A stretch of DNA of 64,000 nt from NCBI GenBank assembly GCA_003971905.1, contig RSEE01000005.1, forward strand, positions 186,001-250,000, written 5' to 3'. The DNA comes from Moniliella sp. 'wahieum'. Its lineage: Eukaryota. Shown here one piece after another: positions 30,393 to 55,837 of the stretch; the first letter of the stretch is position 1, and each line of letters begins with the position of its first letter. A model generated the notes under the pieces. It ran no database searches and was not told the DNA's origin. It saw only the letters and a list, made by a program, of their open reading frames with translations. The translations under genes were made by a program, and so were the position numbers.

Positions 30393-31098
30393 ATGGCCAT
30401 CTGGACCTCCGTTGCCAAAGACCAGGCAGAGAAGTACGCCGCCAAGTACCAGCCCGAAGTACTGCCTTCCGAGGCAGCGCAGCCAGCGTCCAGCCGAGAC
30501 TATGCTCTCTTCCGGCACTAACATTGAGCCTTGCGTCATCAGGACCCGTTCTACGAGTACTACCAAGATGCCAAGGGGAAGCAGAGCGTCGCAAACGTGC
30601 CCCTCCGCCTGGGTTGACCCCGCACGAAGAGAAGGTGTGGAAAAAGATTGCTAAGCACGCGCATCGCCTCGACCGCGGCATCCGATTGCCGGCTCCGGTT
30701 TGGATACACCGCCATCCTGGGCATATTCCCCTACGTTGGCACTGCCGCGAATGGTGCGCTGAACTACTACTGCCCGTCATCAAACCAGCCAAAGAAACCT
30801 TTGAGTGCGTATTCTCTCCCTTTGTCGACACAGTGAGGCGCATAGCAGTGCTGACCCTGACCCTATCCCAGTTTGCCGTCGGGCACAGTGGATCGGATGA
30901 AGTTTAACGCGATGGTTGGGTGTGCCTTTGACCTCATTCCACTGGTGGGGGACATATTCCTCGCTGTATGGGGGGCGAACGCACGCAACGTCCACCTTGT
31001 TGAACGGCACTTGGCCCAGCGTGCGCCTTCCACGGCCGTACATGCCCACGTCTGAGGGACACGGGATCAACAGGAACCTTGAGCCGCTCAGCCCCTGA
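30393..31098 (+). CDS. DUF4112 family membrane protein
   Basis: KYQPE, intron, DPFYEY; RRKRAPPPGLT; HAHRLD; RFGYTAILGIFPYVG; LIPLVGDIFLAVWGANARN. Confidence 0.8.
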
Positions 31099-40113: not shown

Positions 40114-43100
40114 TTAATTAGGTCGAAATGTCGCTCTTGCGCCCGCGCTCCATTGTCCCTCGCGCCGCGCGTCCACGCGGGTGGCTACAGCGTCATCGTC
40201 ATCGTCATCGTCTTGGCATGCACCCCCCACCGGCGGGCCACCCGCAAACAGCGTGTGCAGCAGCTTGAGGTACCGCAGCGACCGTAGCTCGTCCTCCGCC
40301 GTCCCCGGCTCTGGCGGCGGCAGCGCCGTCAGCACCACACTCGTGCCCCCCGCCACCGACGAGTGGGTGCGGATGAGCTCGTTGAGAATCAGATACTGCG
40401 CCTTGTTGGGCAAGTCGTTGAACGAGATCAGGGGAGGTCCCGCCGCGTCGTGTGTGGCAGCGCCGTAGGGCATATTGCGTGAGCGCAGCCGCGACGACGA
40501 TCGCCCCTCCCCGCTGCCCGATCCCTTTTCGCCTGCTTGCGCCTCCACGTCCACCTCCGAGGCGCCTGGCTCCGCCTCGCTCCCAGCCTGCTTGTCCGCT
40601 CCACGCGCATGCAACGGCCCCGTGCTGCGCATGGTCGCGTCCGGGTCCTGGTCCGCTTCAGACTCGAGCGGGACGAGGAACGCGGTGGGAAAGAGGGCCG
40701 GGCCCGCGCCCTTGGCTCCTCCACCGTATGCGCCCTTCGGTCTAGGGAAGCGGACATGCTCTGCGTCCGGCCCTTGTGGCGTTTGCGCGTAGTATCCACC
40801 GTACTGGCTCGCCCAGTAGCAATTCCCGCGCCGGGGGCGGCAAACTGGGAGTGGGAGCGTGGGCTGCCACTACTGCCCCATTGGTCCGGGTCGAAGAGGT
40901 GGTAGAGCTCGTCGCTCAGGTCGCTGTCCGAATCCGACTCGCTCCCCGAGCTGGAGGAGTCGACATCGGAGCTGGTGGACAGACGGGTGCGCGCCTTGGG
41001 GTGTGCAAGACCGATTTGGATGTTGCGTTTAAAATAGGCCATATGCTCGGGCGGGAGGGTGAAGCCGAGCAATTGTTGTTGTTTGCGTGTCCGGCGTGCT
41101 GGGCTGTTCGTCCGTTCCGTCGTTGACACGCGTTTTTTCGAGAGCGCCGCTTGGGTTCGCCGAGCGCGTCGGGCATCTTCCTTGCGCAGTTCCTTCAACG
41201 TCTCCCACCATGGATCCAACTCCAACGCCCGTTCGATCCGCTCCGACGCCCTGTGGCCCAACACGATCGCCTCGTACGCATTCACCTGGGCCGTGCGCAG
41301 ACAAAATACTCGTAGCTCCGCCCGGACACGCAAGTTGTCCAGCAAACTCTGGATCCGACCCCGTTCTTCCTCCACTTGCTCAGGCACCTCGACAAACACA
41401 TTCACCCGTAACTGGTGCCGCTTCCAGGCACCCGTCATGCTCAAGATTGTGCCCAAATGCAAGACCATGGTATAACTGTCCCAGGTGCGCGACTGATCGT
41501 TCCCCGGTTCCGTACTGGCAATCTGCACCGGCCACAAGTCAAGATACTTCTTCTCTTCGCCTTTGTGCGAGGGCGATGAGGAGAACCAGGAGCCGGCACC
41601 ATGAGTCGGATGAAGCGCTTGGGTGACCGATGTGTCCAGGTGCGAAAAGCCATAGGCAATGGCAAAACTCTTGTTGAGCGCCAACGTGTCCTCCATGATG
41701 CCAACAAACGCTTGGGCACGGATCGGAGTTTCGCGCCGCGCCTGGTCCGTCGGCAGCTCTTCCACATCCAAAGTCATGTAACCTTGCGGATTCTCTTCCT
41801 CACTTTCCTCGGTGGGGCTCGCCATCCCGCGAATCGTAATCTCGCTCTCGTCCGAACCGGCGACCAAAGATTTTTGCCGTGGATCCATCCGGAGCGGGAA
41901 CTGCATGTGCGACGGAAAGCCCATCACAACAATGTTGGGCCGCATCCCGCCCAAGCCACAGGATAAAATCAAGTTGCGTGCTCCCTCGCGCTCGTCACGC
42001 GCAATGACAATGTCGACAAACGACTTGATGCCCGTCAAGTCGATCAGCTTGAGCCATGACACGTTTTGCTGTCTCAGCTCGGACAGGCACTCGGCAAAGT
42101 CGCCTTTGAGCACGTGGCCCAAGACGTAGAGTGAACCTTTTTTCAGGGCGTTGCAGAAGATGATCGTGTTCCATTCGGTGCGGGGGTTGTTGGCCAAGAG
42201 CAAGACTTGCGGACGCCAATACTTGACATGGCCTTTCCGCTCATCAATCCGCAGCATTTGCCGACGCGAAATGTAGTAGTTCAAGTTGCGCGTCACGTCG
42301 CCCCACGGTTTGGGCGGCGCATAGATGTGCACCGCAACAAACAGGCCAATGGTCAACACGAGGCATTGGAGCGCCGCCCACCAGTCCGTGAAGAACATAG
42401 CGCCAAAGCTGATCAGTGTGCCGCCCCAGGCAGTGTAAATGTTCCAGTACCGGAACAAGGGCCGGAAACTAGGTGCACCCCCAGCCTTCAAGGCAGCCGT
42501 GGCAAAGCACAGCGTACCAAACGTCAGCAGCGTCGTCATAGTCACGAGCTGCGCCAACGCATTGACCGAATCGACCACCAAGACCAACTGGCAAAAGAGG
42601 TAGGTGATCAAGATGGCATAGGTGGGTGTATCACTGACCTCGGTACCTTGGGCAAAGACATTGAGGACCGGGAGCAGGTTGTCCCGTGCGATGGCCTGGA
42701 GCACCTTGGCACACGCCAAGACGCCCATCAAGGTCGAAAACGCCGTCGAGGCCAACGCGCCAAACGTGATCAGTTGCGGACTCAGCGCAATGTCATTCAC
42801 GATCCCAGCGTCGCTATAAAAGCTTTGACGATCCACTGTCGAAGCAAGGATGATAAAGGTGCCGAAGTAGATGATGAAAGTGAAAACCAAGGACCAGTTG
42901 GTGCCCTTGGGGATCGACTTGCTCGGCTTGCGCAGGTCCCCAGACATACTGGCCCCAGCCAGAATCCCATTGACAGCAGGGAAGAGTACGCCAAAGACTG
43001 ACTGCCAGCTCTCGGGTTTGTCCCCCGTCGAGGACCCCGCAGCACCGGAGGTAAAGTGCGGGAAGTTGGCTTTCAAAGTGGCCAGCGACCAACCAGTAAA

Positions 43101-44285
43101 GTACGCGCCCCGCTCGGTCGCGGAAGGGTGCACGGCAATACTGGAGAGGGGATGGAGAGGATGGCAGCAGAGAGGATGACAGCGAGACCGAGTGTGGCGC
43201 GGGCAAAGAGCCGGCTTCCGACGAGACAGACTAGCATGCAGAGCAAGAGCAACAGACTTCCATAGAAGAAGAGCCAGATTGGGCCCTCGGGCAGACCATC
43301 GGACATCCTCGACTCGCCATACGCATCAGTCAAGCTCTCCACAAACCCAAGCACGTTCATGGCTGCGTTCAATGCTTGACCGGCAAAAAAGATGAGGCCA
43401 ATGCTCCCGCCAAACTCGGGTCCGAGACTGCGGGAGATGAGGTAGTAGGCCCCGCCGCCACGCACTTGACCGTTGGTGCTAATTGCATTGAGCGACATGG
43501 CAGTCAGAGTATCAATCGCATAGCTGACCACCAGCAACCCAAACGCACCCAGCAGTCCAACTTGACCAATAATAAAGCCAAACCGAAGAAAGAGAATGAT
43601 ACCGAGGATCTGCATGAATATCACAGCGTCAGTCCCTCTTTGCCCAGCCAATGTGCCCACGCGCAAACAAGAGACATACATTCAAGCTGACCGGCATAAA
43701 CACCCCGTCCCACGTTCCCAGTTTCCTCGGTGCATACTCTGCAGGGGAGATCATGCCGCCCGCTTTGGGATGGTGGGCCGGGGGAGCGGGAGCCAAGTCG
43801 TCGGGGAAAAAGGAATTTTCTCGTTGCAACCCCATCTTGTGTTTCTTTCCGGACCCATCTGCTTTCACACCGGGCTCAAACGTGACGCCCTTCTTGCCAT
43901 TGTGGGAAGGAAGAGGGGCACTTTTGTCGGCCAGGTCGCTATCCATGGCACCGTATCCCCCGGGATGTGATAGCGACTGCCCATCCTCCGGCCCGGCGAG
44001 CAGGGCGCGGTTCTCCTCTAAGCCAGAGGCAGCAGAACTGGAGGACACAGCCGATGATGCTACCGCCCGCGGCAAATCGTCCTCCGAGTTGCGCCGGTGG
44101 AAGCTGGACGGACGAGAGTGCGAGTCGGCTAGGCTGGCGGGACGGGAATAAGGGTCGGCTGGCGACAGGAGACCGGACTGGCGGGCCTCATGGTTCGGGC
44201 CTTCGATCGAGTCGCGGCGGAGAAGGGACTGGGTCAGGGCTTGGAAGTCGTCGCGGTCGGATGGCCGGCTGACAAACTTGGACAT
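40114..44285 (-). CDS. VHC1: Cation-chloride cotransporter (SLC12/Vhc1 family)
   Basis: KLGTWDGVFMPVSLN, intron, ILGIILFLRFG; ISTNGQVRGGGAYYLISRSLGPEFGGSIG; GILAGASMSGDL; APSFRP; VKYWRPQVLLL; GLGGMRPN. Confidence 0.93.
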
Positions 44286-44823
44286 GCCCGCGCACTGGCT
44301 GGCTGGATTCGCTACCGGCGGCGGCGGTGGGAGAGACAGGCGGCCCAGATACGAGGCAGAGGCACAATCGGCAGCCTCCCAAAAGCCAATCGTGGTAACC
44401 GGTAACTCCACCCGCCCGAAACAAGGCCGCGCCAATTGTGACATTTCATTTTGGCGGTAGTCAAAAACTCTGCGTCATCGATCATCGATCATCCTTCATC
44501 TGCATAAGACCGCGTTCAACACATAGGCGCTGGAAAATAGGGTTGTACTATGTACCAGGTGTTTGTGTTGGTCAGATGGCATTGTGCAAGGCATCATTCC
44601 ACACCCACTAGGGGGCAAGAGTCAACATTAAACAGGACACAACGTTTTACAAACCGCGCCAGCGGGTCTTCCAGATCTGGCCTGCATGACCTTTCTCGAA
44701 GGGATAGGCCTTTTTTGGTTAAGAGGCGAGGGTGAGTACAACACAGATGATTCCAGGGAAGACTGCATCGAGAAGACAAAACAAACTCGATCCTACTATA
44801 TATATGGGAATGAATTAAAACTA

Positions 44824-45061
44824 GTAATGATGAGACCTGGAGTCCTGATGGTCCTCGACGATGATGCAATCGCACTGGTAGTGGCGGTGGTCTAAGCCAA
44901 CCATCAACGCCTACGGAGAGGAACAACAAGCAGCGAGTCGCCACCAGGGGCTAAGCTGCGGAACAGGGAAAAACAAGAGAAAGAAAACAACGGAACTCCC
45001 AGGCCTGAGGAGGAACTGAAGGGACATTGGCCAAAGCACGAGCCACCCGATGGCTCAACAA
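44824..45061 (+). repeat. Left arm of a diverged ~235-bp inverted repeat
   Basis: Matches the reverse complement of 45567-45795 (shared blocks ATGATGAGACCTGGAGTCCTGATGGTCCTC, TGATGCAATCGCACTGGT, CAGGGGCTAAGCTGCGG, AGGCCTGAGGAGGA, TGAAGGGACAT). Confidence 0.92.
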
Positions 45062-45566
45062 GTAATGATGGGTCTCAATGAAGATTATTCACCGTTGGGA
45101 TGTCTGGCACGCTCATTCGTATCCACGTGCGCCCGCCCGCGTTTGTAATAGCGTATGGTGGGCACAGAGGGTCCTTCTGTGACCTTCTGGCGAATTCACC
45201 TGGTTTATTCCTACACGAGTTTGGCGCCAACAAGCAAACAGCCTGGATGAGATGTGCTTAGGCGCAGCGTTTCTTTGTCCCAGATCAGTTCACGCTCTCT
45301 GTAAACGATATGACTGTGCAAAATTATATGCTAGAGCACCCGGGGATCCTACAGAGTCACAGGTGCAAAGCAGCCTTCACAGAAAAGGCGTTGTGAAGCC
45401 AAAACGGTGAGCTGTATTAAGTACTAAGTCTACAAGCAACGTCTGAAGGATGAAGCGCTGATGAACTGTGAATGGAAAAGGAGACAGGAGAGACAAAGTA
45501 AGATGGAGCAAGCAGGAGATGCGCAGCCTGCTTCCCCACGGCTATAGGCAAGCGTCACCGGTCACC

Positions 45567-45795
45567 TGTTGAGCTAAGTGGCTCGTGATTTGGCCGATGT
45601 CCCTTCATCTCCTCCTCAGGCCTAGGAGTTCCTCTGTTTCCCCTCTCCTGTTTCCCTCCTTGCCCCGCAGCTTAGCCCCTGATGGTGACTCGCTGCTTGA
45701 TGTTCCTCTGTAGGCATTGCTGGTTGCCACACCACCACCACCAGTGCGATTGCATCACCCTTGAGGACCATCAGGACTCCAGGTCTCATCATCAC
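45567..45795 (-). repeat. Right arm of the diverged inverted repeat
   Basis: Reverse complement aligns along its length with 44824-45061; spacer ~505 bp. Confidence 0.92.
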
Positions 45796-46572: not shown

Positions 46573-46696
46573 AGGTGGCAGCAAAGTGAGGAGTGCTTGA
46601 TGCAGGTGGCAGCAAAGTGAGGAGTGCTTGATGCAGTTGGCAGCAAAGTGAGGGGTGCTTGATGTAGGTGGCAGCAAAGTGAGGAGTGGTTGACGC
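46573..46696 (+). repeat. Minisatellite, 4 x 31 bp (AGGTGGCAGCAAAGTGAGGAGTGCTTGATGC)
   Basis: Units start at 46573, 46604, 46635 and 46666; units 1-2 identical, units 3-4 with 2-3 substitutions. Confidence 0.97.
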
Positions 46697-46833
46697 CTGT
46701 GATGGTCCATGGTCCATATATTTGAAAGGCTGCTGAACGGCCCCTGGAGAATTTGTCCACCCGCAGCCAGCACCCCAAGCAGATCCTCCAGCCCTCACAG
46801 CTTCAACGCTTCAAGCTTCATCGATCATCCCCC

Positions 46834-48729
46834 ATGTCCTCCCCGCTCAACAGTGGGCGCCCTGCGTCCCTCCAAAGCATCGCTCGTTCGCTCAGTGCGA
46901 AACTTCCTCCTCCACCCGACCTCCCAAGCGTCAACATCCCCAATGGTGCCACCAGCACCAGCACTGATACCAACGGCACCCCGCGCCTGCCCTCGCTTAA
47001 CCCTCGCATCAGTTCCCAAATTGAAGCTTCCTTCCACGATATGTGCAACGATTCTCTCGCTCCCTGCTCGACCGCTTGCGGTCCGACCTGCGGACGACTT
47101 TATCCCCCAATCCGTTGAGTCCTGCCCAGATTGAAGGGGTCATCAAGCATGCCTACCAGTACGCCATCCAGGCCCTTCATGAGCTTCTGCCCAACCTACT
47201 CCAAGCCATGTGGGCCAGCCAAGGGAGCACGACACTCAGCAGCCGAACGGTGTTCCTTTCTTTTGTCGAAACCTTTACCCTCTACGTTGGGAACGAGGTG
47301 ATATCCCCCCTGTTGGATGTCGTCAGACAGCCCAACATCATACGCTCCAGCGCGGGGCAGGGGCTCAGCACGCACAACCACCAGCGTCCACGGCCGATCC
47401 CCCCGAAGAAGCCGTCTCTATCCTGGAATTCGCATATCACCTCTCCAAACATTCCACTTCGGCTGAACAACAGGTACTCAGCGAGCTAACGAGACTCCGC
47501 CGATCCCAGGTTACCGCATGGGTACGTTCTCCACCCGGACCGCGTCACCACTGGAAGAAGAGGTGAGAAGTAGCGCTAACATGAGAGGGTTTTGGTACGC
47601 AGCTGCAGAATAAGCGGCACCGCTCCAACCCCGTCCAGGGGGAAAAAGCAAGCCAAGCGTGCCAGAAGGGTCCCGGGTGAACGTGGAACGCAAACAAATC
47701 CTCTTGATCCCCTCCCGACTGGCTCGCCTTCCTTCCTGTCGAGCATCCCTGGACAGGCAGATAACCGCAAAAAGCAGAGACCAGAGAACCAAGAAGAGGA
47801 GGAAATGTTGCAGAAGCGCACAATAAACGATGACGAGAAAGAGGGTATGCAAGAAACAGACGAAGAGGATGAGAACGAGAAGATGGATCAAGACCAAGAG
47901 GGGCAACGATAGTAAAAGGGCACTACACCCCATTCCTCAAACTACGACAAACTTCTCGAGCGCAGCCAATCTCGAGAAGAACGAGTAACGTTTTTTCATC
48001 GCTTCTTAGCACTATAGCTTCTGACCGAGATCCAGATCTTCTATTCCAACAGGTTCCACGCTTCCAGGCGACATCTTGATGGGTATGGAGGGATCTATGG
48101 ATCTGAACCACGGACCACCCCTCTTCGGATCCTCCCAACCCCATCGATTGGGTGAAATACGCCCTCAAGCTCCTATTGGTGGTTGTCCAGTAGACAGAGA
48201 CTTAGCTGAGTTGGGGTATCACTCAGCTCCCAACTTCTCTGCCCCCTCATTGCCTCACCAGTCCCAGCCCCAGCCTCCCCTCCCTGTTTCGACAACGCCG
48301 ATTACCTCCGGAATGGACACTGAACAATTCTGGCTGCGGAACGGAAGCCAATGGAGGGGGTCAGGTGCGGCAGGGGCTGTGATGAGTGTACCCTTCTCAT
48401 TCGCACCATCAACAGGAGGCTCTTTCAATATCATGGCCCCACCGCTCTACCCACCGCCTCTATTACAAGAAACCCACTATACTCACCCGTGTTCCCACCC
48501 CGCCTTTCAGCCAGGCCCATCCGCCGCCTCCCTAACCCCTTATCCTGCATTCGACTACAGACCATTTTTGGGGGATAACCGGATTGCGCACTCAAGTGTG
48601 GATGAGGGTGGTGTGCGCCGACCGGGGAATCCCCCTCTTGCTTTCGCCTTTTGCGACCCCAACAGCCTTGTGCTTCCACAAAAGAGTTCGTCAGAGACAA
48701 AGGAGGCTCCGTCAATGGATCAGCCCTAA
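46834..48729 (+). CDS. HD2-class (non-TALE, bW-like) homeodomain protein, copy A
   Basis: PEEAVSILEFAYHLSKHSTSAEQQVLSELTRLRRSQVTAW, intron 47522-47602 (GTACGT..GCTAAC..CAG), then LQNKRHR; second intron 47985-48035 splices in frame to the 48076 ORF; basic NLS-like and acidic tracts; Pro/Ser-rich C-terminus. Confidence 0.85.
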
Positions 48730-49725
48730 CGGGATGGTTCCGGGTACAATCTTGTCATTATCAGCTTCCTTTTGGACCTTGGCTCCTCCTACATCCCAAC
48801 TGTGCTTCCCCATTTTTCTTCCTTTTCTGTTGATCGTTTGCGTGTCCCATCTACGTTTGTCATTATATCACTGAAAGGACGAGCGCCTTCTCACATATTC
48901 AGAGAGCCTGCAGTTCACCCTGGTGCTGCATTGACACATCAATTCGCTATCCTTCTTTGCCTTTCTCCAATTGCTCGTGGTCAACTGTCGGACCCTATGG
49001 AGGGCTACTACGGACGTGCATATACGATGCCAGGCGTTAGAAGCACACACTATAGTCATATATTATGTGTTCGACCACAGCAGCGGTCGCCACCTCACGC
49101 CGTCTTCCACACGGCTGCAATCTTCTCTACAATATCGCCTCCATTCACAGCCCCGTAATATTCTCCACCGTCATGACGCGGAGAAGATAATGCACGATGG
49201 TGAATAAACGTAATGGACGGCGGAGTGGCGGTCGATGCGGGAAAATATGGGAGAGAGAAAGATCTGATGTATAGGGTGTACGTGAGAGGGTGGCGACATC
49301 TCTCTAATATTCGCGCATTTTGGCACGTAAGAATCCGGATCGCCTTTTGATCTTTAGGCAAGCGATGGCTGCAAAGCGAGAAGTATAGGCTTGCCTAGTA
49401 CGGTGGCCTAGATGCGTTCTTACAGCGACGGCCCACCCGCTGACATATGATGGAAAAAAAGCGCAGCAGTACTATGAAATTCTCTCCGGAGCTATTCGTC
49501 GAGTAAGAGATGATGTGGCAGTAGTGCATAGTCGTTTGGAATAGATATGAGAGTCAACACAATAAGCCTCTCATCAAGGGGCACTTAGTTTTCCGCACAG
49601 GTGTGTCGGGGACTACTCGCAACCCGTCTATATAAACGCAGACCTTGTCCACCCCAACCTCGCTTTTTGTCGTTCCCACACCCCTCTTCTTTTCCTCACC
49701 CCGCCCCTAGCCGTCCCAACGAATC

Positions 49726-50893
49726 ATGGTGTGCTCACCTTGTCTGATTGGCCCAACCCATCAGGCCCTGCCGAACCCCGAATTCAAACACGACCCCCAG
49801 TGCGCCATGGAAGGAACCGCCACCGTCGAAGGGCCCGACACTTGGAACCTTCGCGTACAAGTGGGCTTTCAGGACAGGTGCTTTCATGACCTCCATGTCC
49901 TTCTAAACCAGTTTCGCTCCCATCTACCGAGCATTAATGACCGTTTGAATGCGCTCCATATCAATGCAATCTGCAAGCGTGCTTTCCAGTACGCGACCGA
50001 GGCCATTACTGTACTCACCCCGGAGTTGTTACAAGCAATGCAGGCCATCCAACAGGATAGCAAGACGATTGGCAATGAACCGATCTTTTTGGCCCATGTC
50101 CAAACATTCACCAATTACGTCAAGGAAGAGGTCCTAGTCCCTCTCCGGGTGTGGCGGAGCAGGCCAATCCCGGTGCTTCCATCGTCAACCAAGAGATGAG
50201 GCAGACCAACACTCGTACGCGCACAAGGCAGAACATACCGGATGGTATTTTTGATGTTCTAAAGTTTGCCTTCAGCCTGTGCGCCACACCTACACCGGCT
50301 GAGGTGCGCGCTCTCAGTCAAATGACCGCGCTAAGCTACAAACAAGTTAATGACTGGGTACGTCTTTATTGGCATCATCCCTCGTGTCTTAGGGGTGTGG
50401 TGAAAGAGCAGCCATCTAACACACACTTGTGGAATGTACAGTATCAGAACCGGCGGTACCGTTCCCAACGACTGCCCAGCAATAACGAAGAACCGAGTGT
50501 GCGAGCTGGGAGCAGCTTCGGGAAAAAAAGAAAGCAACCTGAAACAGAGTGCGAGGATTCCGACCAGGGGGTTGGAGAACCCGGTGACGTGGAAAATGAA
50601 GGGATGGAGGGGAGAAGGAAGGAGAAGGGAATTCGCGCAGAAGTGAGGCATTATCGACGACATTACGCATTTCGGCATATTATCGTTACCACCACCTTTT
50701 CCCTCCGGAGTCGATGAACGAGTGAGTTTTCTTCTGGTCCTTAATTTTTGTGCTTTAGATTCTGACCGCAAGGGGATCTAGGTCGAACACCCAACCCATC
50801 ATTCCCCAGTCGGCTAATCAAGTCAACTATGTCTTCCTGCCGAAGACGGAGGGCTTGAAGGGGTGGGACACCACTCCGTTAAGGCCGTACTAG
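49726..50893 (+). CDS. HD2-class homeodomain protein, copy B (paralogue of A, short C-terminus)
   Basis: TATATAAA at 49629; IPDGIFDVLKFAFSLCATPTPAEVRALSQMTALSYKQVNDW, intron 50358-50441 (GTACGT..CTAAC..CAG), then YQNRRYR; second intron 50722-50781 at the position equivalent to A; stop position inferred. Confidence 0.85.
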
Positions 50894-51410: not shown

Positions 51411-51483
51411 TTGTTGAGCCACCGGATGGCTCACGCCTTTTGGCCAAAACGTCGTCTCTTCAATTCCTCCTCAGGCCTAGGAG
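51411..51483 (-). repeat. Third partial copy of the island repeat
   Basis: TTGTTGAGCCACCGGATGGCTC...TTGGCCAA...CTTCAATTCCTCCTCAGGCCTAGGAG aligns to the inner ends of both inverted-repeat arms. Confidence 0.75.
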
Positions 51484-52622
51484 GGTGTCATGCATCATGG
51501 GGGGAGTCCCGAGGCGGGACCTACCCTCCCTACTGTAGTTTAGGGATATAAACTCTTGGACGGCCAATCAGAATCTCGTACGTTAGGTCCTGCCTCAGAT
51601 CCTGATTGAGCCGAGCGGGTGTAGACTTGTAGAGGCGAAGGAGATACCCTCCAGTTTTTTGGGTGGCTGCCTGCGCGCAGAGGCCGCAGCTCAGACCCTC
51701 CGAGGTAGGAGCCGCGTACGTATAGCTCGTCAGAGCAGCTGAAAAGGGGTTCAACGTTCAGGAACTACGGGGTAACCGGTAACATGGGTCAGCTGGGGCG
51801 TTACCACACTCACCGCGCTGTAGTAACAGGCCGAATCAGATGAATTCTTTTAATGAAGAGCAATTAAGCGTTTTCGAGAGAAACCGCGGTTTGTGGTGTA
51901 ATCGACGTGAGGCGTATAAATGCGTAACGGTGGTAGAAGGTGGAACAGGGCGCGAACAGGGTGAACAGGGACAGGATGGTCGATAAGGGCATATTGAAAG
52001 GTTTTCCGAAAGTCATTTCTGGTGAACAGTGCCTCCACTTGCACTTTACGCCGAGGGACTTGTGTTGACGTGGACGTTGATAAACTCATTGCGCCTTTTG
52101 ACCTTTTTGCTTCCTCCAACTATGCTTTTTGAGCCCCAATTCCCTTTCCCATCATAACTATAAACCGTAGTTATTGCCCCTCATAGGTAAGAGCGATATC
52201 ATATATCACTGGCCTTGGACACAGTCCTTCTTAGGCTTACCACTGTAGTAGAGTGTTTTTGTATACACTCACACGCTTGCATTATTGTTTTCGCCCCGCC
52301 CTCGCTTATATGTGTCGATCTCTGCTCAACAGCGCCTCATCGTATATTTTAGCACGCCCTCTCTTCAAGCTTTTCACATGCGATCGGGCGTTTACAATTG
52401 AATCGGCGGTCGTTGAGCAGATGGCAGCCCCTGGTATTCAGACCGCACATTCTCCCTTCGCCTGTTGTGTCCTTTGCTTTATTCCCTCCAACACCCAATA
52501 TCACCCTATCCCGCGCGGGCCCATCGATCCCCCAGTGTTTCTACCCAGCACCTATGCACGACTCCATCCCTATTTCCTCTGTGCCGTTACGCAGCCTTGC
52601 GCCGCGCGAGGTGCGAAGCGCC

Positions 52623-53554
52623 ATGCTCACCGGTGCCGAAGATTTGTCGTCGCTGCTTGACCCGCTCGACGGGCTCAAGCCCGACGATGAGGAGGTTCGG
52701 GAGATCATCGAGGCTTCTGAACCTACTCTCCGTCCTATCCGCCGCTTACTCGAAACCGGCCAAGCCTACGGCACCATCTGCGTCACCACGGGCAACACGA
52801 TCCAGACCCCTGGGGGGTTGTTGCTCGATGCGGACAGTACCATTACTTCTACCTTGATGAGGGGCGGGTGATGTTCAACTGCATGGTGTATGAGGGCATT
52901 CACCGCGTCCTGTCCTTCAAGCCCACCCGGCCCCGGCAAGCCATCTCTGCCCTCCACCTCCGGCTTCAGAGTGAACCATCTCGTTCCCCTACGCCAAACG
53001 CGGGAGGCGGCCGCGATGATGCCTCCCCACCAAGTCAAGCACCCAGCGCCAGCGCGCGTGCTACCTGGGCCAAGGCCCACTTGGCCCCACACCGTGCCCC
53101 CGAAGGGACCAACTCCTCCCATTCATCTTTCGGCGGCAACTCGTCTACTTCCTCCTCCTCTTCCGGATCCTCCTCACATGCAAGTTTCCAGTCTCTCGAA
53201 GTGCATCGGAAGCTTCCCATCAATTCTGAAGCTGGCACCATTAGCGCAACCAGTCAGGGATCGGTCGAAGAGACGCAAGCGAGCGAGTTGAGTCTCATGT
53301 CTATTGACAACTTTAGCAGATGGGGGGCTACGCACCCGATGAGTGGCATCGAATACCATGACCCCTTTTCTCCCATTCGCTCCTCACGCATTCCTACGGG
53401 TTCCCCTTCGTTCCAAACACTTTTTGGGGGAGGCAGCGATTCCCAACAGTCTACTGACAGCGATTGCACACCCACGGGGCCCTCCAATGCCTCCCATTCG
53501 TCTTCTAATGGCTCGGGCGATTTGTTCTCATCTTTTTCCCAACACCGGCACTAA
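52623..53554 (+). CDS. Hypothetical (orphan) protein with a Ser-rich C-terminus
   Basis: MLTGAEDLSSLLDPLDGLKPDDEEVREIIE...GTICVTTG; one frameshift at ~52860 joins the 52868-53554 ORF; true start uncertain. Confidence 0.55.
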
Positions 53555-54098: not shown

Positions 54099-55837
54099 TT
54101 AGGTTGAGGTCGCTGGGGTGTCAGGATGGGTGCCGTGGACGACCTGGAGAACTTGTTTGTACAGGGTCTGGATTTGGACCAGCTTCTGCTCATGGTCTAG
54201 CCGCCGACACTCCTCCATAAACATGGCCAAATTGCCTCTGGGGTGGTCCCAGTCGCCATCAAAGTCGCCGTTCATGAAAGAGCCAATGTTGCTGACTGAC
54301 ATGCCGGCGCGGTGGTCAGTGACACGAGACTGAGGGAAGTTGTAGGTGCGGATGCGATCCCAACGGTCCATGGTCTGGACCTGTTCGATACGCATTGCCA
54401 CGCTATCTGCCATTTCGGCTTGGCGAACACGCTCTTGTAGACGGGCCCGGAGAACTATCCATGCCTTGGCACGGTTTTGGTGCTGGGAACGACTGTCCTC
54501 AATGCGCACAACAGTGCCAGTGGGTTCGTGCGTGAGGCGAATAGCACTTTCGGTTTGTTGACGTGCTGTCCTCCGGCACCAGAAGAGCGCATGGTTTCGA
54601 CACGTACCTCCTTGGGATCAATATAAAACTCGTCGCTCTTCTCGGTCGGTTCGGGCATAATGGGTAGCACGACGGTAGCCATGGTACTGGTTTGGAGCTT
54701 GCCCGTGCTCTGGGTGATCGGAACACGCTGAACACGGTGAACGCCTCCTTCCCACCGCATTCGCTCGTAGATGTTGAGCCGCCTTCCTCGCCAGCGCGGG
54801 GGTCGGTGATGCGCATCAACACTTCCTTCATTGCTCCGAGCCCTGCTGGGTAGTGGTGCTGACTTCCATAGGAGTAGCGGACATGATGTCCACCAGCCAG
54901 CCAGCATTGCTAGCGAATTTTTGCAGCATACGAGCCACTTGGTTGGTAAACAGACCCGCCTCGCCACCGCCTACCCCAGGACGACATTCGACAAATGACA
55001 CCCTCTGGTTCAACGCCGGCACTGACCTCCCGGGTGCCAGTAAGGCCAGTGGTCACGTCGGCACGTACACTGGCCGAGCTAGCACGGGCCTTGATCAGCT
55101 GTACCCCCGCCTTGTAGAGTGCGTCGTACATGGAAATAAGTTGACTGCGAATAGACGTGCGCTCTCTCGGCCAAGCGTTGGACTACCGCGCCCGCTCCTC
55201 CTCCTCTGCCAACGCACGCATTTCCTCGTCCGCGTCGGCGGCAGATTGTGCGGCAAGCTCAGCCGATTGTACCTTCTGCCGCTCCAGATCGACGTATGCT
55301 TGGTACCAGTAGTAGAGTGGATCAATCAGGTGCAGGGCACGAGACGCCGACACGGAGGTAGACTGAGGGTTGGTTCTTGCTGTGGGGGGGGCGGGGCAGA
55401 CATGTGCCCGTCAGTCGTCGCACATGGCAAAGAGAAGAAGGACTTACCTGATCATGGAGACCTTGCGCACGTGCAGGAGCCGCTCCACCCCGTTCAGCAC
55501 CGAGTCGGATGCAAAGCGTTCGGGGAAGCGCGCTGCCAGGCTATCGCCCGTTGCGTCCTTCTTGGACACGGCAATGGACGTGTGCAGCGAGCGCAGCTGG
55601 CAGGGTGGGGACAGGCGTCGCAGGAGGCGTGGTGGCCGCGACGGCAGCCGTGGTGGTGGCTGTGGGCGCAGCAGGATGCGTGGCTGAGGCCCAACCTGGC
55701 TGCCGCGGCGGGCGGGCGGACGAAAGAGGGGGCGAGGGACCAGCCCAGGGGGGAAGAAGAGCGGCCCGCTTACGACACTTGTCCGCCGAAGAAGAAGAGA
55801 ATAGAGACAAGAAACGGCGTCCAGAAGTAAATTGCAT
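54099..55837 (-). CDS. MRF1: Mitochondrial peptide chain release factor 1
   Basis: Presequence-like MQFTSGRRFLSLFSSSS; ECRPGVGGGEAGLF; EGGVHRVQRVPITQ (PxT motif); RSSGAGGQHVNK; RIRTYNFPQSRVTDHR; intron donor at ~55447. Confidence 0.92.

Follow-up and report, generated by a model that had tools for sequence, protein, structure and literature searches.

The interval of 9.6 kb between a VHC1-like and an MRF1-like gene was found to contain two tandem homeodomain genes, here called gene A and gene B, in a window of 64 kb, the whole stretch of DNA that was analysed. Both are read as real, probably intact and anciently duplicated transcription-factor genes that would act as lineage-specific developmental regulators and not as a canonical mating-type locus, and this reading is given a probability of about one half. 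They are not seen as a canonical mating-type locus because no paired HD1 gene was found with them. Descent of both genes from an HD2-type ancestor is possible, and so is a role in mating. The homeodomains of A and B would bind DNA, the N-terminal domain may pair with a partner protein as in the HD2-type regulators bW, Sxi2 and a1, and the acidic region or the tail may supply activation. Among the points counted against this reading are the Pfam scores of A and B below the curated cut-off and the failure to find any homologue of either protein in the searched databases. If A and B are not mating genes, they would still be two homeodomain regulators specific to this lineage, whose N-terminal domain resembles nothing that the searches could detect.

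Both genes lie on the plus strand (Table 1). The initial annotation had described helix 3 of each homeodomain as split by an intron directly after the Trp, and both introns were located in the sequence: the TGG codon of Trp48 was found at 47519-21 in gene A and at 50355-57 in gene B, followed by intron 1 and then by LQNKRHR and YQNRRYR, respectively. Intron 1 of gene B was in frame and contained no stop codon. A second intron with a GAACGA/GT donor and a TTCTGACCG branch had also been claimed for both genes, and it was found in both at the same codon and in phase 2, interrupting the codon for Glu in an Asn-Glu dipeptide. The splice signals were canonical in all four introns, and the peptides quoted in the annotation were present as written. 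Downstream of the homeodomain, both genes encoded an acidic stretch and a cluster of basic residues resembling an NLS; the gene A product contained an additional long Pro/Ser/Gly-rich tail and the gene B product was shorter.

Table 1. Features of the gene A and gene B interval and its flanks (positions in the window).
Feature	Position	Strand	Remarks
VHC1-like SLC12-type cation-chloride cotransporter, left flank	40431-44474	-	frame break ~43130
Foldback / long-inverted-repeat element	44824-45795	.	arm length ~240 nt, arm complementarity 86-91%; separates VHC1 from gene A
Tandem repeat, four copies of 31-bp unit	46573-46696	.	core GGCAGCAAAGTGAGG; lies 140-260 bp before the start codon of gene A
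Gene A core promoter candidate	46718-46762	+	TATA-like box, then TTGTCCACCC starting 81 nt before ATG
Gene A	46834-48729	+	~590 codons, stop 48727-9; basis: sequence reading and codon log-odds
Gene A exons	46834-47521, 47603-47984, 48036-48729	+
Gene A conserved N-terminal domain	47040-47312	+	91 aa, common to gene B; without Pfam family
Gene A homeodomain	47381-47638	+	arm to Trp48 47381-47521; LQNKRHR from 47603
Gene A intron 1	47522-47602	+	81 nt, GTACGT...GCTAAC...CAG
Gene A intron 2	47985-48035	+	51 nt, phase 2, GAACGA/GTAACG...TTCTGACCG...CAG
Gene B core promoter candidate	49629-49654	+	TATATAAA, then TTGTCCACCC starting 81 nt before ATG
Gene B	49726-50893	+	~340 codons, stop 50891-3; basis: sequence reading and codon log-odds
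Gene B exons	49726-50357, 50442-50721, 50782-50893	+
Gene B conserved N-terminal domain	49879-50148	+	90 aa, common to gene A
Gene B homeodomain	50217-50477	+	arm to Trp48 50217-50357; YQNRRYR from 50442
Gene B intron 1	50358-50441	+	84 nt, GTACGT...TCTAAC...CAG
Gene B intron 2	50722-50781	+	60 nt, phase 2, GAACGA/GTGAGT...TTCTGACCG...TAG
Solo repeat-arm fragment downstream of gene B	51411-51483	.	direct orientation with foldback arm 45578-45653
MRF1-like mitochondrial peptide-chain release factor (PCRF + RF-1), right flank	54102-55052	-	frame break ~54555

The N-terminal domains of A and B, reported earlier as shared and helical, were found to be 43% identical over 84 aa (58.9 bits, E=1.4e-15; blastp of the stop-to-stop ORF pieces 47025-47486 and 49711-50196, in a small search space). 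Conservation of the domain in both genes was thereby upheld; its helical nature appeared in a low-confidence model only, the AlphaFold2 single-sequence model of gene B (49726-50148) containing five helices over residues 51-137 at a mean pLDDT of only 40. Between the homeodomain exons the identity was 30% in an alignment of 89 aa (E=6.9e-9, 40.4 bits; blastp of ORF pieces). The proposal of a duplicated cassette was supported by the same domain order, the same positions and phases of both introns, a TATA-like box and a 10-mer at -81. To judge from their sequences, A and B are paralogues from an ancient duplication.

A profile of the A and B N-terminal domains was found to have no credible relative (E<=0.001) among 1.84 billion representative proteins (HMMER); the sole match, P0001 (4675 aa, repetitive), was matched at six short stretches and was rejected as spurious. 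The N-terminus and the homeodomain exon of gene B gave no match in word-based protein searches, its N-terminus gave no usable match in the Atlas, and a scan of metagenome contigs with the A and B alignment gave 343 pattern matches, none of which was confirmed. The closest named match to CSE1 of this genome was 52% identical. The source genome is, as far as these sequences indicate, a deep and poorly sampled lineage of Ustilaginomycotina, and with a named relative no closer than this in CSE1, the missing homologues are weak evidence.

The homeodomain of gene B was found to contain L16, F20, L34, L40, W48, Y49, Q50, N51, R52 and R53, and that of gene A L16, Y20, L34, L40, W48, L49, Q50, N51, K52 and R53. 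Both carry the conserved core set of Leu16, Phe/Tyr20, Leu34, Leu40, Trp48, an aromatic or aliphatic residue at position 49, Asn51 and Arg53. Gene B was aligned to positions 2-47 of the 57 positions of Pfam PF00046 with E=1.6e-4 to 2.7e-4 (21.1-21.8 bits, cut-off 22.9), and gene A to positions 10-47 with E=0.12 (12.7 bits, under the cut-off); PF00046 is scorable up to position 47 of 57 only, because the intron cuts the homeodomain after Trp48. The initial annotation had seen no TALE insertion in either gene, which agrees with the alignment of 46 residues of gene B to PF00046 positions 2-47 without any indel and with the length of A and B, 3 residues shorter than the TALE homeodomains of the PDB (when aligned with TGIF1 and TGIF2LX, A and B open a gap of 3 residues). 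The TALE insertion comprises three residues and is located between helices 1 and 2. HD1/TALE mating-type proteins are expected to contain Ile50 in a WFIN-type helix 3, whereas Gln50 was found in both A and B. The predicted homeodomains of A and B are of the typical 60-aa, non-TALE, Gln50 class.

A second reading, which we hold to be doubtful, is that A and B are functional bW-type mating genes in tandem duplication, with the HD1 gene unlinked or relocated, or with a haplotype that is an HD2-only idiomorph. The N-terminal domain would then give allele specificity and dimerisation with a non-self HD1. The initial annotation had proposed either an idiomorph with HD1 on the opposite allele or a relocated HD2-HD2 system. 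Nothing in the mating-type loci of basidiomycetes is more conserved than the head-to-head pair of HD1 and HD2 genes, and this defining adjacent and divergently transcribed HD1 was absent from the interval. A scan of both strands of the 64 kb for a Trp, an intron and [FYLIM]xNx[RK] gave two sites only, those of A and B, both on the plus strand. No homeodomain match (E<=0.05) was found among the 125 other ORFs of at least 45 aa in 44.4-54.1 kb on both strands and in 1-1.9 kb on the minus strand, a search that could miss an HD1 split by introns or strongly diverged, as the own exon of gene A reached only E=0.12. The earlier statement that no HD1 lies in the 2.3 kb upstream of the genes or between them was in line with both searches. 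In every basidiomycete studied, the two genes of an HD1/HD2 pair are transcribed divergently (PMC5295586).

The architecture of A and B, with an N-terminal domain followed by a typical homeodomain without TALE insert, is identical to that of HD2 proteins and favours the mating reading, as does the intron after Trp48 in both genes, the second intron of MATa1 being likewise located in the homeodomain end (PMC3287188). The absence of a detectable homologue of the N-terminal domain is also what is expected of a fast-evolving specificity domain. The assignment to the HD2 class as bW-like genes stood for the architecture (N-terminal domain, typical homeodomain and intron after Trp48), and a sequence link to bW or Sxi2 did not appear in the protein, HMMER and Atlas searches; this lack of similarity to a known HD2 in the databases speaks against the mating reading. 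The label of HD2 or bW-like may be given only on the domain order, the missing TALE insert and an intron position that MATa1 may share.

Among the known systems, bW of the b locus of Ustilago maydis and Malassezia belongs to the same subphylum and resembles A and B in the order of N-terminal domain, typical homeodomain and long C-terminal region. In bW, the alleles differ in the N-terminal region, which also holds the surface for interaction, and bW lies head-to-head with bE (PMC3560662), whereas A and B form a same-strand tandem with no HD1 found in the interval. The class labels are inverted in rust papers, where bW-HD1 and bE-HD2 are used (PMC5295586).

MATa1 of Saccharomyces cerevisiae, the archetype of the HD2 class, contains, like A and B, a typical non-TALE homeodomain with an intron in its C-terminal end. 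In yeast MATa1 the second intron would lie exactly between Trp48 and Phe49, and if this position holds, the shared position would argue for true HD2 ancestry and raise the mating reading; no statement on the exact intron position in HD2 genes was found in the literature. The pairing of MATa1 with alpha2 involves the homeodomain as well as the tail of alpha2. Unlike A and B, it is a protein of 126 aa without a long N-terminal domain or C-terminal tail. Its homeodomain comprises residues 66-126, exon 3 is small, and intron retention gives a longer, inactive a1 (PMC3287188); intron 1 of gene B resembles this retainable intron in being in frame and free of stops. No a1 chain was found among the PDB matches of the gene B exon or of the A and B profile.

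The SXI1alpha/SXI2a genes of Cryptococcus offer a precedent for a haplotype that bears an HD2 without an HD1, as MATa keeps only SXI2a. Sxi1alpha and Sxi2a are sex-specific interacting HD proteins (PMC13001979). The single HD2 gene of Cryptococcus is placed in a MAT locus of more than 100 kb (PMC2873909, PMC3280970), whereas a tandem pair with housekeeping flanks was found here. The HD-a and HD-b subloci of Flammulina velutipes, an example of the multi-paralogue HD loci of mushrooms, resemble A and B in their duplicated HD genes, and one HD2 gene, FvHd2-1, is placed in a sublocus of its own, separate from the main pair (PMC5100862, PMC6388666). Flammulina velutipes belongs to another subphylum, and its HD paralogues are still recognisable by BLAST as HD1 or HD2 members. 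A same-strand HD2-HD2 tandem without HD1 was not found described in the excerpts of the literature on HD loci of the Flammulina type.

It is rather unlikely that the interval is the whole or a part of an HD mating determinant in which HD2 is duplicated and split from HD1, with recognition across unlinked loci or by one-class idiomorphs. If true, such an unlinked HD1/HD2 determinant would break the head-to-head arrangement of all basidiomycetes studied (PMC5295586). If A and B act in mating, the pair would have been split and one half duplicated, which would show how recognition loci get rebuilt, and a new, unrelated-looking dimerisation domain would be available for study.

The composition of the interval bears on the same question. 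No other 10 kb of the window was found to have so low a GC content, and copies of one repeat family lie on both sides of the interval, which favours the mating reading: a 19-mer of the foldback arm was present in 3 copies in the 64 kb (0 expected), all of them flanking the A and B pair. The GC trough and the bracketing repeat fit equally a special region, MAT-like or relocated, and one that is simply poor in genes. Against the mating reading, the GC3 values of A (0.60) and B (0.62) were at the low end of the range of the neighbours (0.60-0.74) but inside it, and GC3 was rejected as a distinctive sign of suppressed recombination. The motif ACAAAGGG, which we take to be the pheromone response element of the U. 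maydis type, likewise gave no support, as none was found near A or B and only one in the 64 kb, at 30818, against 2.5 expected.

The upstream regions of A and B were found to share no more words than shuffled sequences (at k=10, 2 shared words where shuffles averaged 1.15), and the only promoter feature that stood out was the shared -81 position of the identical 10-mer. The TATA-like box together with this 10-mer, placed at -81 relative to the ATG in both genes, is taken as an independent candidate promoter of each gene. The GGCAGCAAAGTGAGG core occurred exactly 4 times, always in the tandem array upstream of gene A.

Frame breaks outside the introns, at which the initial annotation had only hinted, were found in both genes, at ~47038, ~47399 (C6), ~47640 (G5A5) and ~47900 (G4) in gene A, and at ~50148 and within 50600-50640 in gene B. 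At least three of the four breaks of gene A were located at homopolymer runs, the break at ~47038 not being at a homopolymer; of those in gene B, one was located at GGG and one in a purine-rich stretch. Gene A contained 38 runs of at least 4 nucleotides in its 1.9 kb, about twice the density in CSE1 (27 runs in 2.5 kb). A 68-nt intron (46945-47012) was considered for the first frame change of gene A and rejected, as frame 0 contained a stop at 47022-24 past the acceptor.

That one or both genes, gene A above all, are decaying pseudogenes, and that the breaks are real mutations in a former HD locus, is considered improbable. The six breaks in two genes suit this reading, as do the break load of gene A (4 breaks across ~1.75 kb of exons against about 1 per neighbour, and higher per kb), the break at ~47038 outside a homopolymer, and the codon log-odds of about zero in exon 3 of gene A (-0.04). 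Against decay, the frame-corrected genes A (~590 codons) and B (~340 codons) contained no in-frame stop, and the canonical splice signals were retained in every intron. By codon log-odds the proposed frame scored best in 12 of 12 segments (7 in A and 5 in B), 11 of which were positive, whereas 3 intergenic stretches used as controls gave a negative score in each of their 9 frame readings. Similar breaks were found in five of the six essential or housekeeping neighbours examined (MRF1, VMA13, RNH1, HOM3 and VHC1), the ORF of CSE1 being unbroken; a neighbour was counted as broken where consecutive Pfam profile positions were in different frames across a gap of at most ~45 nt, too short for an intron. 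By eye, a homopolymer was present at three of these five breaks (C6 in VMA13, and in VHC1 and RNH1) and absent in MRF1 and HOM3. Since five of six housekeeping neighbours are similarly broken without room for an intron, the breaks of A and B are best read as assembly indels and not as decay; some real decay of gene A is possible, because it contains more breaks than its neighbours and one outside a homopolymer. Single-base assembly errors would thus hide real genes throughout this genome.

It is very improbable that the homeodomain call is wrong and that A and B are unrelated helical proteins with a chance WxQNxR resemblance: the Pfam scores under the gathering threshold, the AlphaFold2 model of the 47-aa homeodomain piece of gene A with two helices only (pLDDT 74) and no resolved helix-turn-helix, and the phmmer search of the gene B homeodomain exon against the PDB, which gave leucine-rich-repeat matches only, favour it, but the latter were obtained through an 'lPdGvFd' word and rejected as spurious, the two paralogues align independently to homeodomain positions up to 47, and [LY]QN[KR]R resumes exactly after a canonical intron in both. 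In the Atlas, the nearest clusters of the gene B homeodomain were homeodomain clusters (score 0.79, a lead only) and so were all ten of the best family-bearing matches; of the ten matches of the A and B profile in the PDB, nine were homeodomains.

Gene A and gene B, the two homeodomain genes, were found to lie in tandem in the 9.6-kb interval between the VHC1-like and MRF1-like genes, and were compared by running blastp with every stop-to-stop ORF piece of the A region against those of the B region. The N-terminal domain was found to match over 84 aa at 43% identity (58.9 bits), followed by the homeodomain exon over 89 aa at 30% identity (40.4 bits). In both genes, intron 1 was found in phase 0 directly after the Trp48 codon, splitting the homeodomain, and contained the textbook fungal signals, GTACGT at the donor, CTAAC at the branch and CAG at the acceptor (81 nt in A, 84 nt in B), followed by LQNKRHR in A and YQNRRYR in B. 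Intron 2 was found in both after GAACGA, in phase 2, where it interrupts the codon for Glu in an Asn-Glu pair, with the branch region TTCTGACCG in common. When both strands of the whole window were scanned with a regular expression for the split signature (Trp, intron, helix-3 remainder), two sites only were returned, those of A and B. The sole unsplit W[FYLIM]xNx[RK] match was found 46 kb away, in a gene for cation efflux, with stops before the motif. The tandem paralogues of the initial annotation, with an intron after the helix-3 Trp and a second one whose GAACGA donor context and branch region are common to the two genes, were thus confirmed by the blastp blocks, the introns and the split-signature scan; its quoted peptides were found in the translations exactly as given, and the gene models were refined.

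In both proteins the homeodomain was followed by a cluster of basic residues (A, KKQAKRARR; B, GKKRKQ) and by an acidic stretch, and then by a 230-aa Pro/Ser/Gly-rich tail in A and only 37 further residues in B. Intron 1 of B (50358-50441) was found to be stop-free and in frame, so that its retention would add 28 residues to helix 3 without truncation; intron 1 of A contains a stop. Retention of intron 2 in yeast MATa1 gives a longer, inactive protein, according to the excerpted text of PMC3287188.

Features of the gene pair and its surroundings
Feature	Position	Strand	Remark
Gene A	ATG 46834, stop 48727-9	+	
Gene B	ATG 49726, stop 50891-3	+	
SLC12-type transporter gene, VHC1-like	40431-44474	minus	one flank
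Mitochondrial release-factor gene, MRF1-like	54102-55052	minus	other flank
10-mer TTGTCCACCC	starts 46753 (A), 49645 (B)		exactly 81 nt 5′ of each ATG, just downstream of TATA-like box
Tandem array, 4 copies of 31-bp unit AGGTGGCAGCAAAGTGAGGAGTGCTTGATGC	46573-46696		140-260 bp upstream of A start; copies 92-100% alike
Foldback element, ~1 kb	44824-45795		upstream of A; inverted arms ~240 nt, 86-91% complementary
70-nt fragment of foldback arm	51411-51483		downstream of B, direct orientation
Frame breaks of A (n=4)	~47038; ~47399; ~47640; ~47900		C6 run at ~47399, G5A5 run at ~47640, G4 run at ~47900
Frame breaks of B (n=2)	~50148; within 50600-50640		
Neighbour frame changes	54555; 57365; 58050; 59670; 43130		MRF1; V-ATPase subunit H; RNase H1; aspartate kinase; VHC1 (in this order)

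At a probability of about 0.5, A and B were taken to be lineage-specific, putatively partner-dependent homeodomain regulators and not a mating-type locus. That they are genuine HD2 genes of a mating-type locus, only arranged non-canonically, as had been proposed, is rather unlikely, although the domain order was as in HD2 proteins, the TALE insert was absent, the N-terminal domain has evolved fast and the intron after Trp48 was present in both genes. The second intron of MATa1 probably lies exactly between Trp48 and Phe49, a position that bW or mushroom HD2 genes may share; a literature search returned no confirmation of this position in MATa1, bW or mushroom HD2 genes. In the excerpted text of PMC3287188 the MATa1 homeodomain comprises residues 66-126 and exon 3 is small, so that there too the second intron interrupts the end of the homeodomain. 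Also in favour of a mating-type locus, the ten lowest-GC 2-kb bins of the window (0.515-0.545) were all found in 44-54 kb, the bins outside having a mean of 0.605 and a minimum of 0.553; against it, GC3, at 0.60 in A and 0.62 in B, was low but inside the range of the neighbours, and the trough is therefore mostly non-coding DNA. A further point in favour is that the pair was bracketed by copies of one repeat, the foldback element and its fragment, since the 19-mer common to the arms and the fragment was found in these three places only in the 64 kb.

Against a mating-type locus stands the lack of an adjacent divergent HD1, which defines the arrangement and was looked for; its absence beside A and B, as first described, was borne out by the both-strand signature scan of the window and a homeodomain check of the ORFs of the interval. 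No U. maydis-type pheromone response element was found near A or B. In smut and yeast naming, bE is HD1 and bW is HD2. In rusts the naming is reversed (bW-HD1/bE-HD2), and HD1/HD2 pairs are described in the excerpted text as having divergent transcription in every basidiomycete studied (PMC5295586), whereas A and B were found on the same strand with no HD1 beside them. Likewise the bE/bW genes of Malassezia are divergent in the part of the source available (PMC3560662), in contrast to two HD2-like copies both on the + strand. The label HD2-like was kept as a description of protein build, not as demonstrated family membership.

Decay of A and B into pseudogenes is improbable. More frame breaks (reading-frame changes other than introns) were found in A than in the neighbours, and one of them lies away from any homopolymer; however, five of the six neighbours examined also contained consecutive positions of one Pfam profile in two frames, the 840-aa CSE1 ORF being the sole unbroken one. 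The gap at these neighbour breaks was at most ~45 nt and was fully taken up by the missing profile positions, leaving no room for an intron; these broken housekeeping genes suggest that the assembly often contains erroneous single-base indels. By eye, a homopolymer run was found at three of the five neighbour breaks (a C6 run in V-ATPase subunit H) and none at the MRF1 and aspartate-kinase sites; the homopolymer-run density of A was about twice that of CSE1. With codon-usage log-odds trained on the neighbour genes, the proposed frame scored highest in all 12 segments of A and B, the three intergenic controls were negative in 9/9 frame readings, and no in-frame stop was left in A or B after frame correction. 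The breaks of A and B are most likely single-base assembly errors, and ORF-based gene calls across this genome will come out fragmented.

A wrong homeodomain call is very improbable, given the following matches. The Pfam Homeodomain profile aligned to B at positions 2-47 on 46 residues without indel (E=2.7e-4, 21.1 bits, cut-off 22.9) and to A at positions 10-47 (E=0.12), scores below threshold because the scored exon ends at Trp48. A PDB search with the two-exon profile of A and B returned homeodomains as nine of ten matches, the best being TGIF1 (E=0.053), and a language-model Atlas search returned homeodomain clusters at a score of 0.79, as a lead only. Both proteins were three residues shorter than the TALE proteins matched in PDB, in agreement with the earlier statement of no TALE insertion, and contained the core residues L16, F/Y20, L34, L40, W48, Q50, N51 and R53. 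Judged from these alignments, lengths and residues, A and B are typical, non-TALE homeodomains of the Gln50 class.

The CSE1 ORF was found to have its best named relatives in Ustilaginomycotina (top 52% identity, organism label '[Till...'; Violaceomyces 49%; Tilletia and Ceraceosorus 47%; Malassezia 45%), with two unnamed proteins at 76% and 67%; by these identities the lineage is deep and poorly sampled. The N-terminus and homeodomain exon of B had no match among longer proteins, and the N-terminal profile of A and B had no genuine relative among 1.84 billion representatives, its sole match being a repetitive protein judged spurious. An Atlas search and a metagenome scan with the N-terminal domain also returned nothing. 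The domain is thus an orphan at sequence level, which is a weak sign of real novelty since the nearest annotated genome is at only ~50% identity in a conserved protein.

Upstream of both genes, a TATA-like box was followed by the identical 10-mer TTGTCCACCC, a candidate initiator or 5′-UTR element kept since duplication. The 15-mer core of the 31-bp unit had exactly four occurrences in the window, each of them within the array before A; this array may represent a minisatellite or repeated binding sites. A core look-alike with three mismatches (49367-49381, ~350 bp 5′ of B) is within chance expectation. A possible third small gene of the interval was observed at 52640-53551 (+), with no Pfam family; it would comprise two ORFs that overlap, 52353-52868 and 52721-53551, with a further frame break near 52860 as their probable junction, and both ORFs were found to have positive codon scores and a protein-like sequence.
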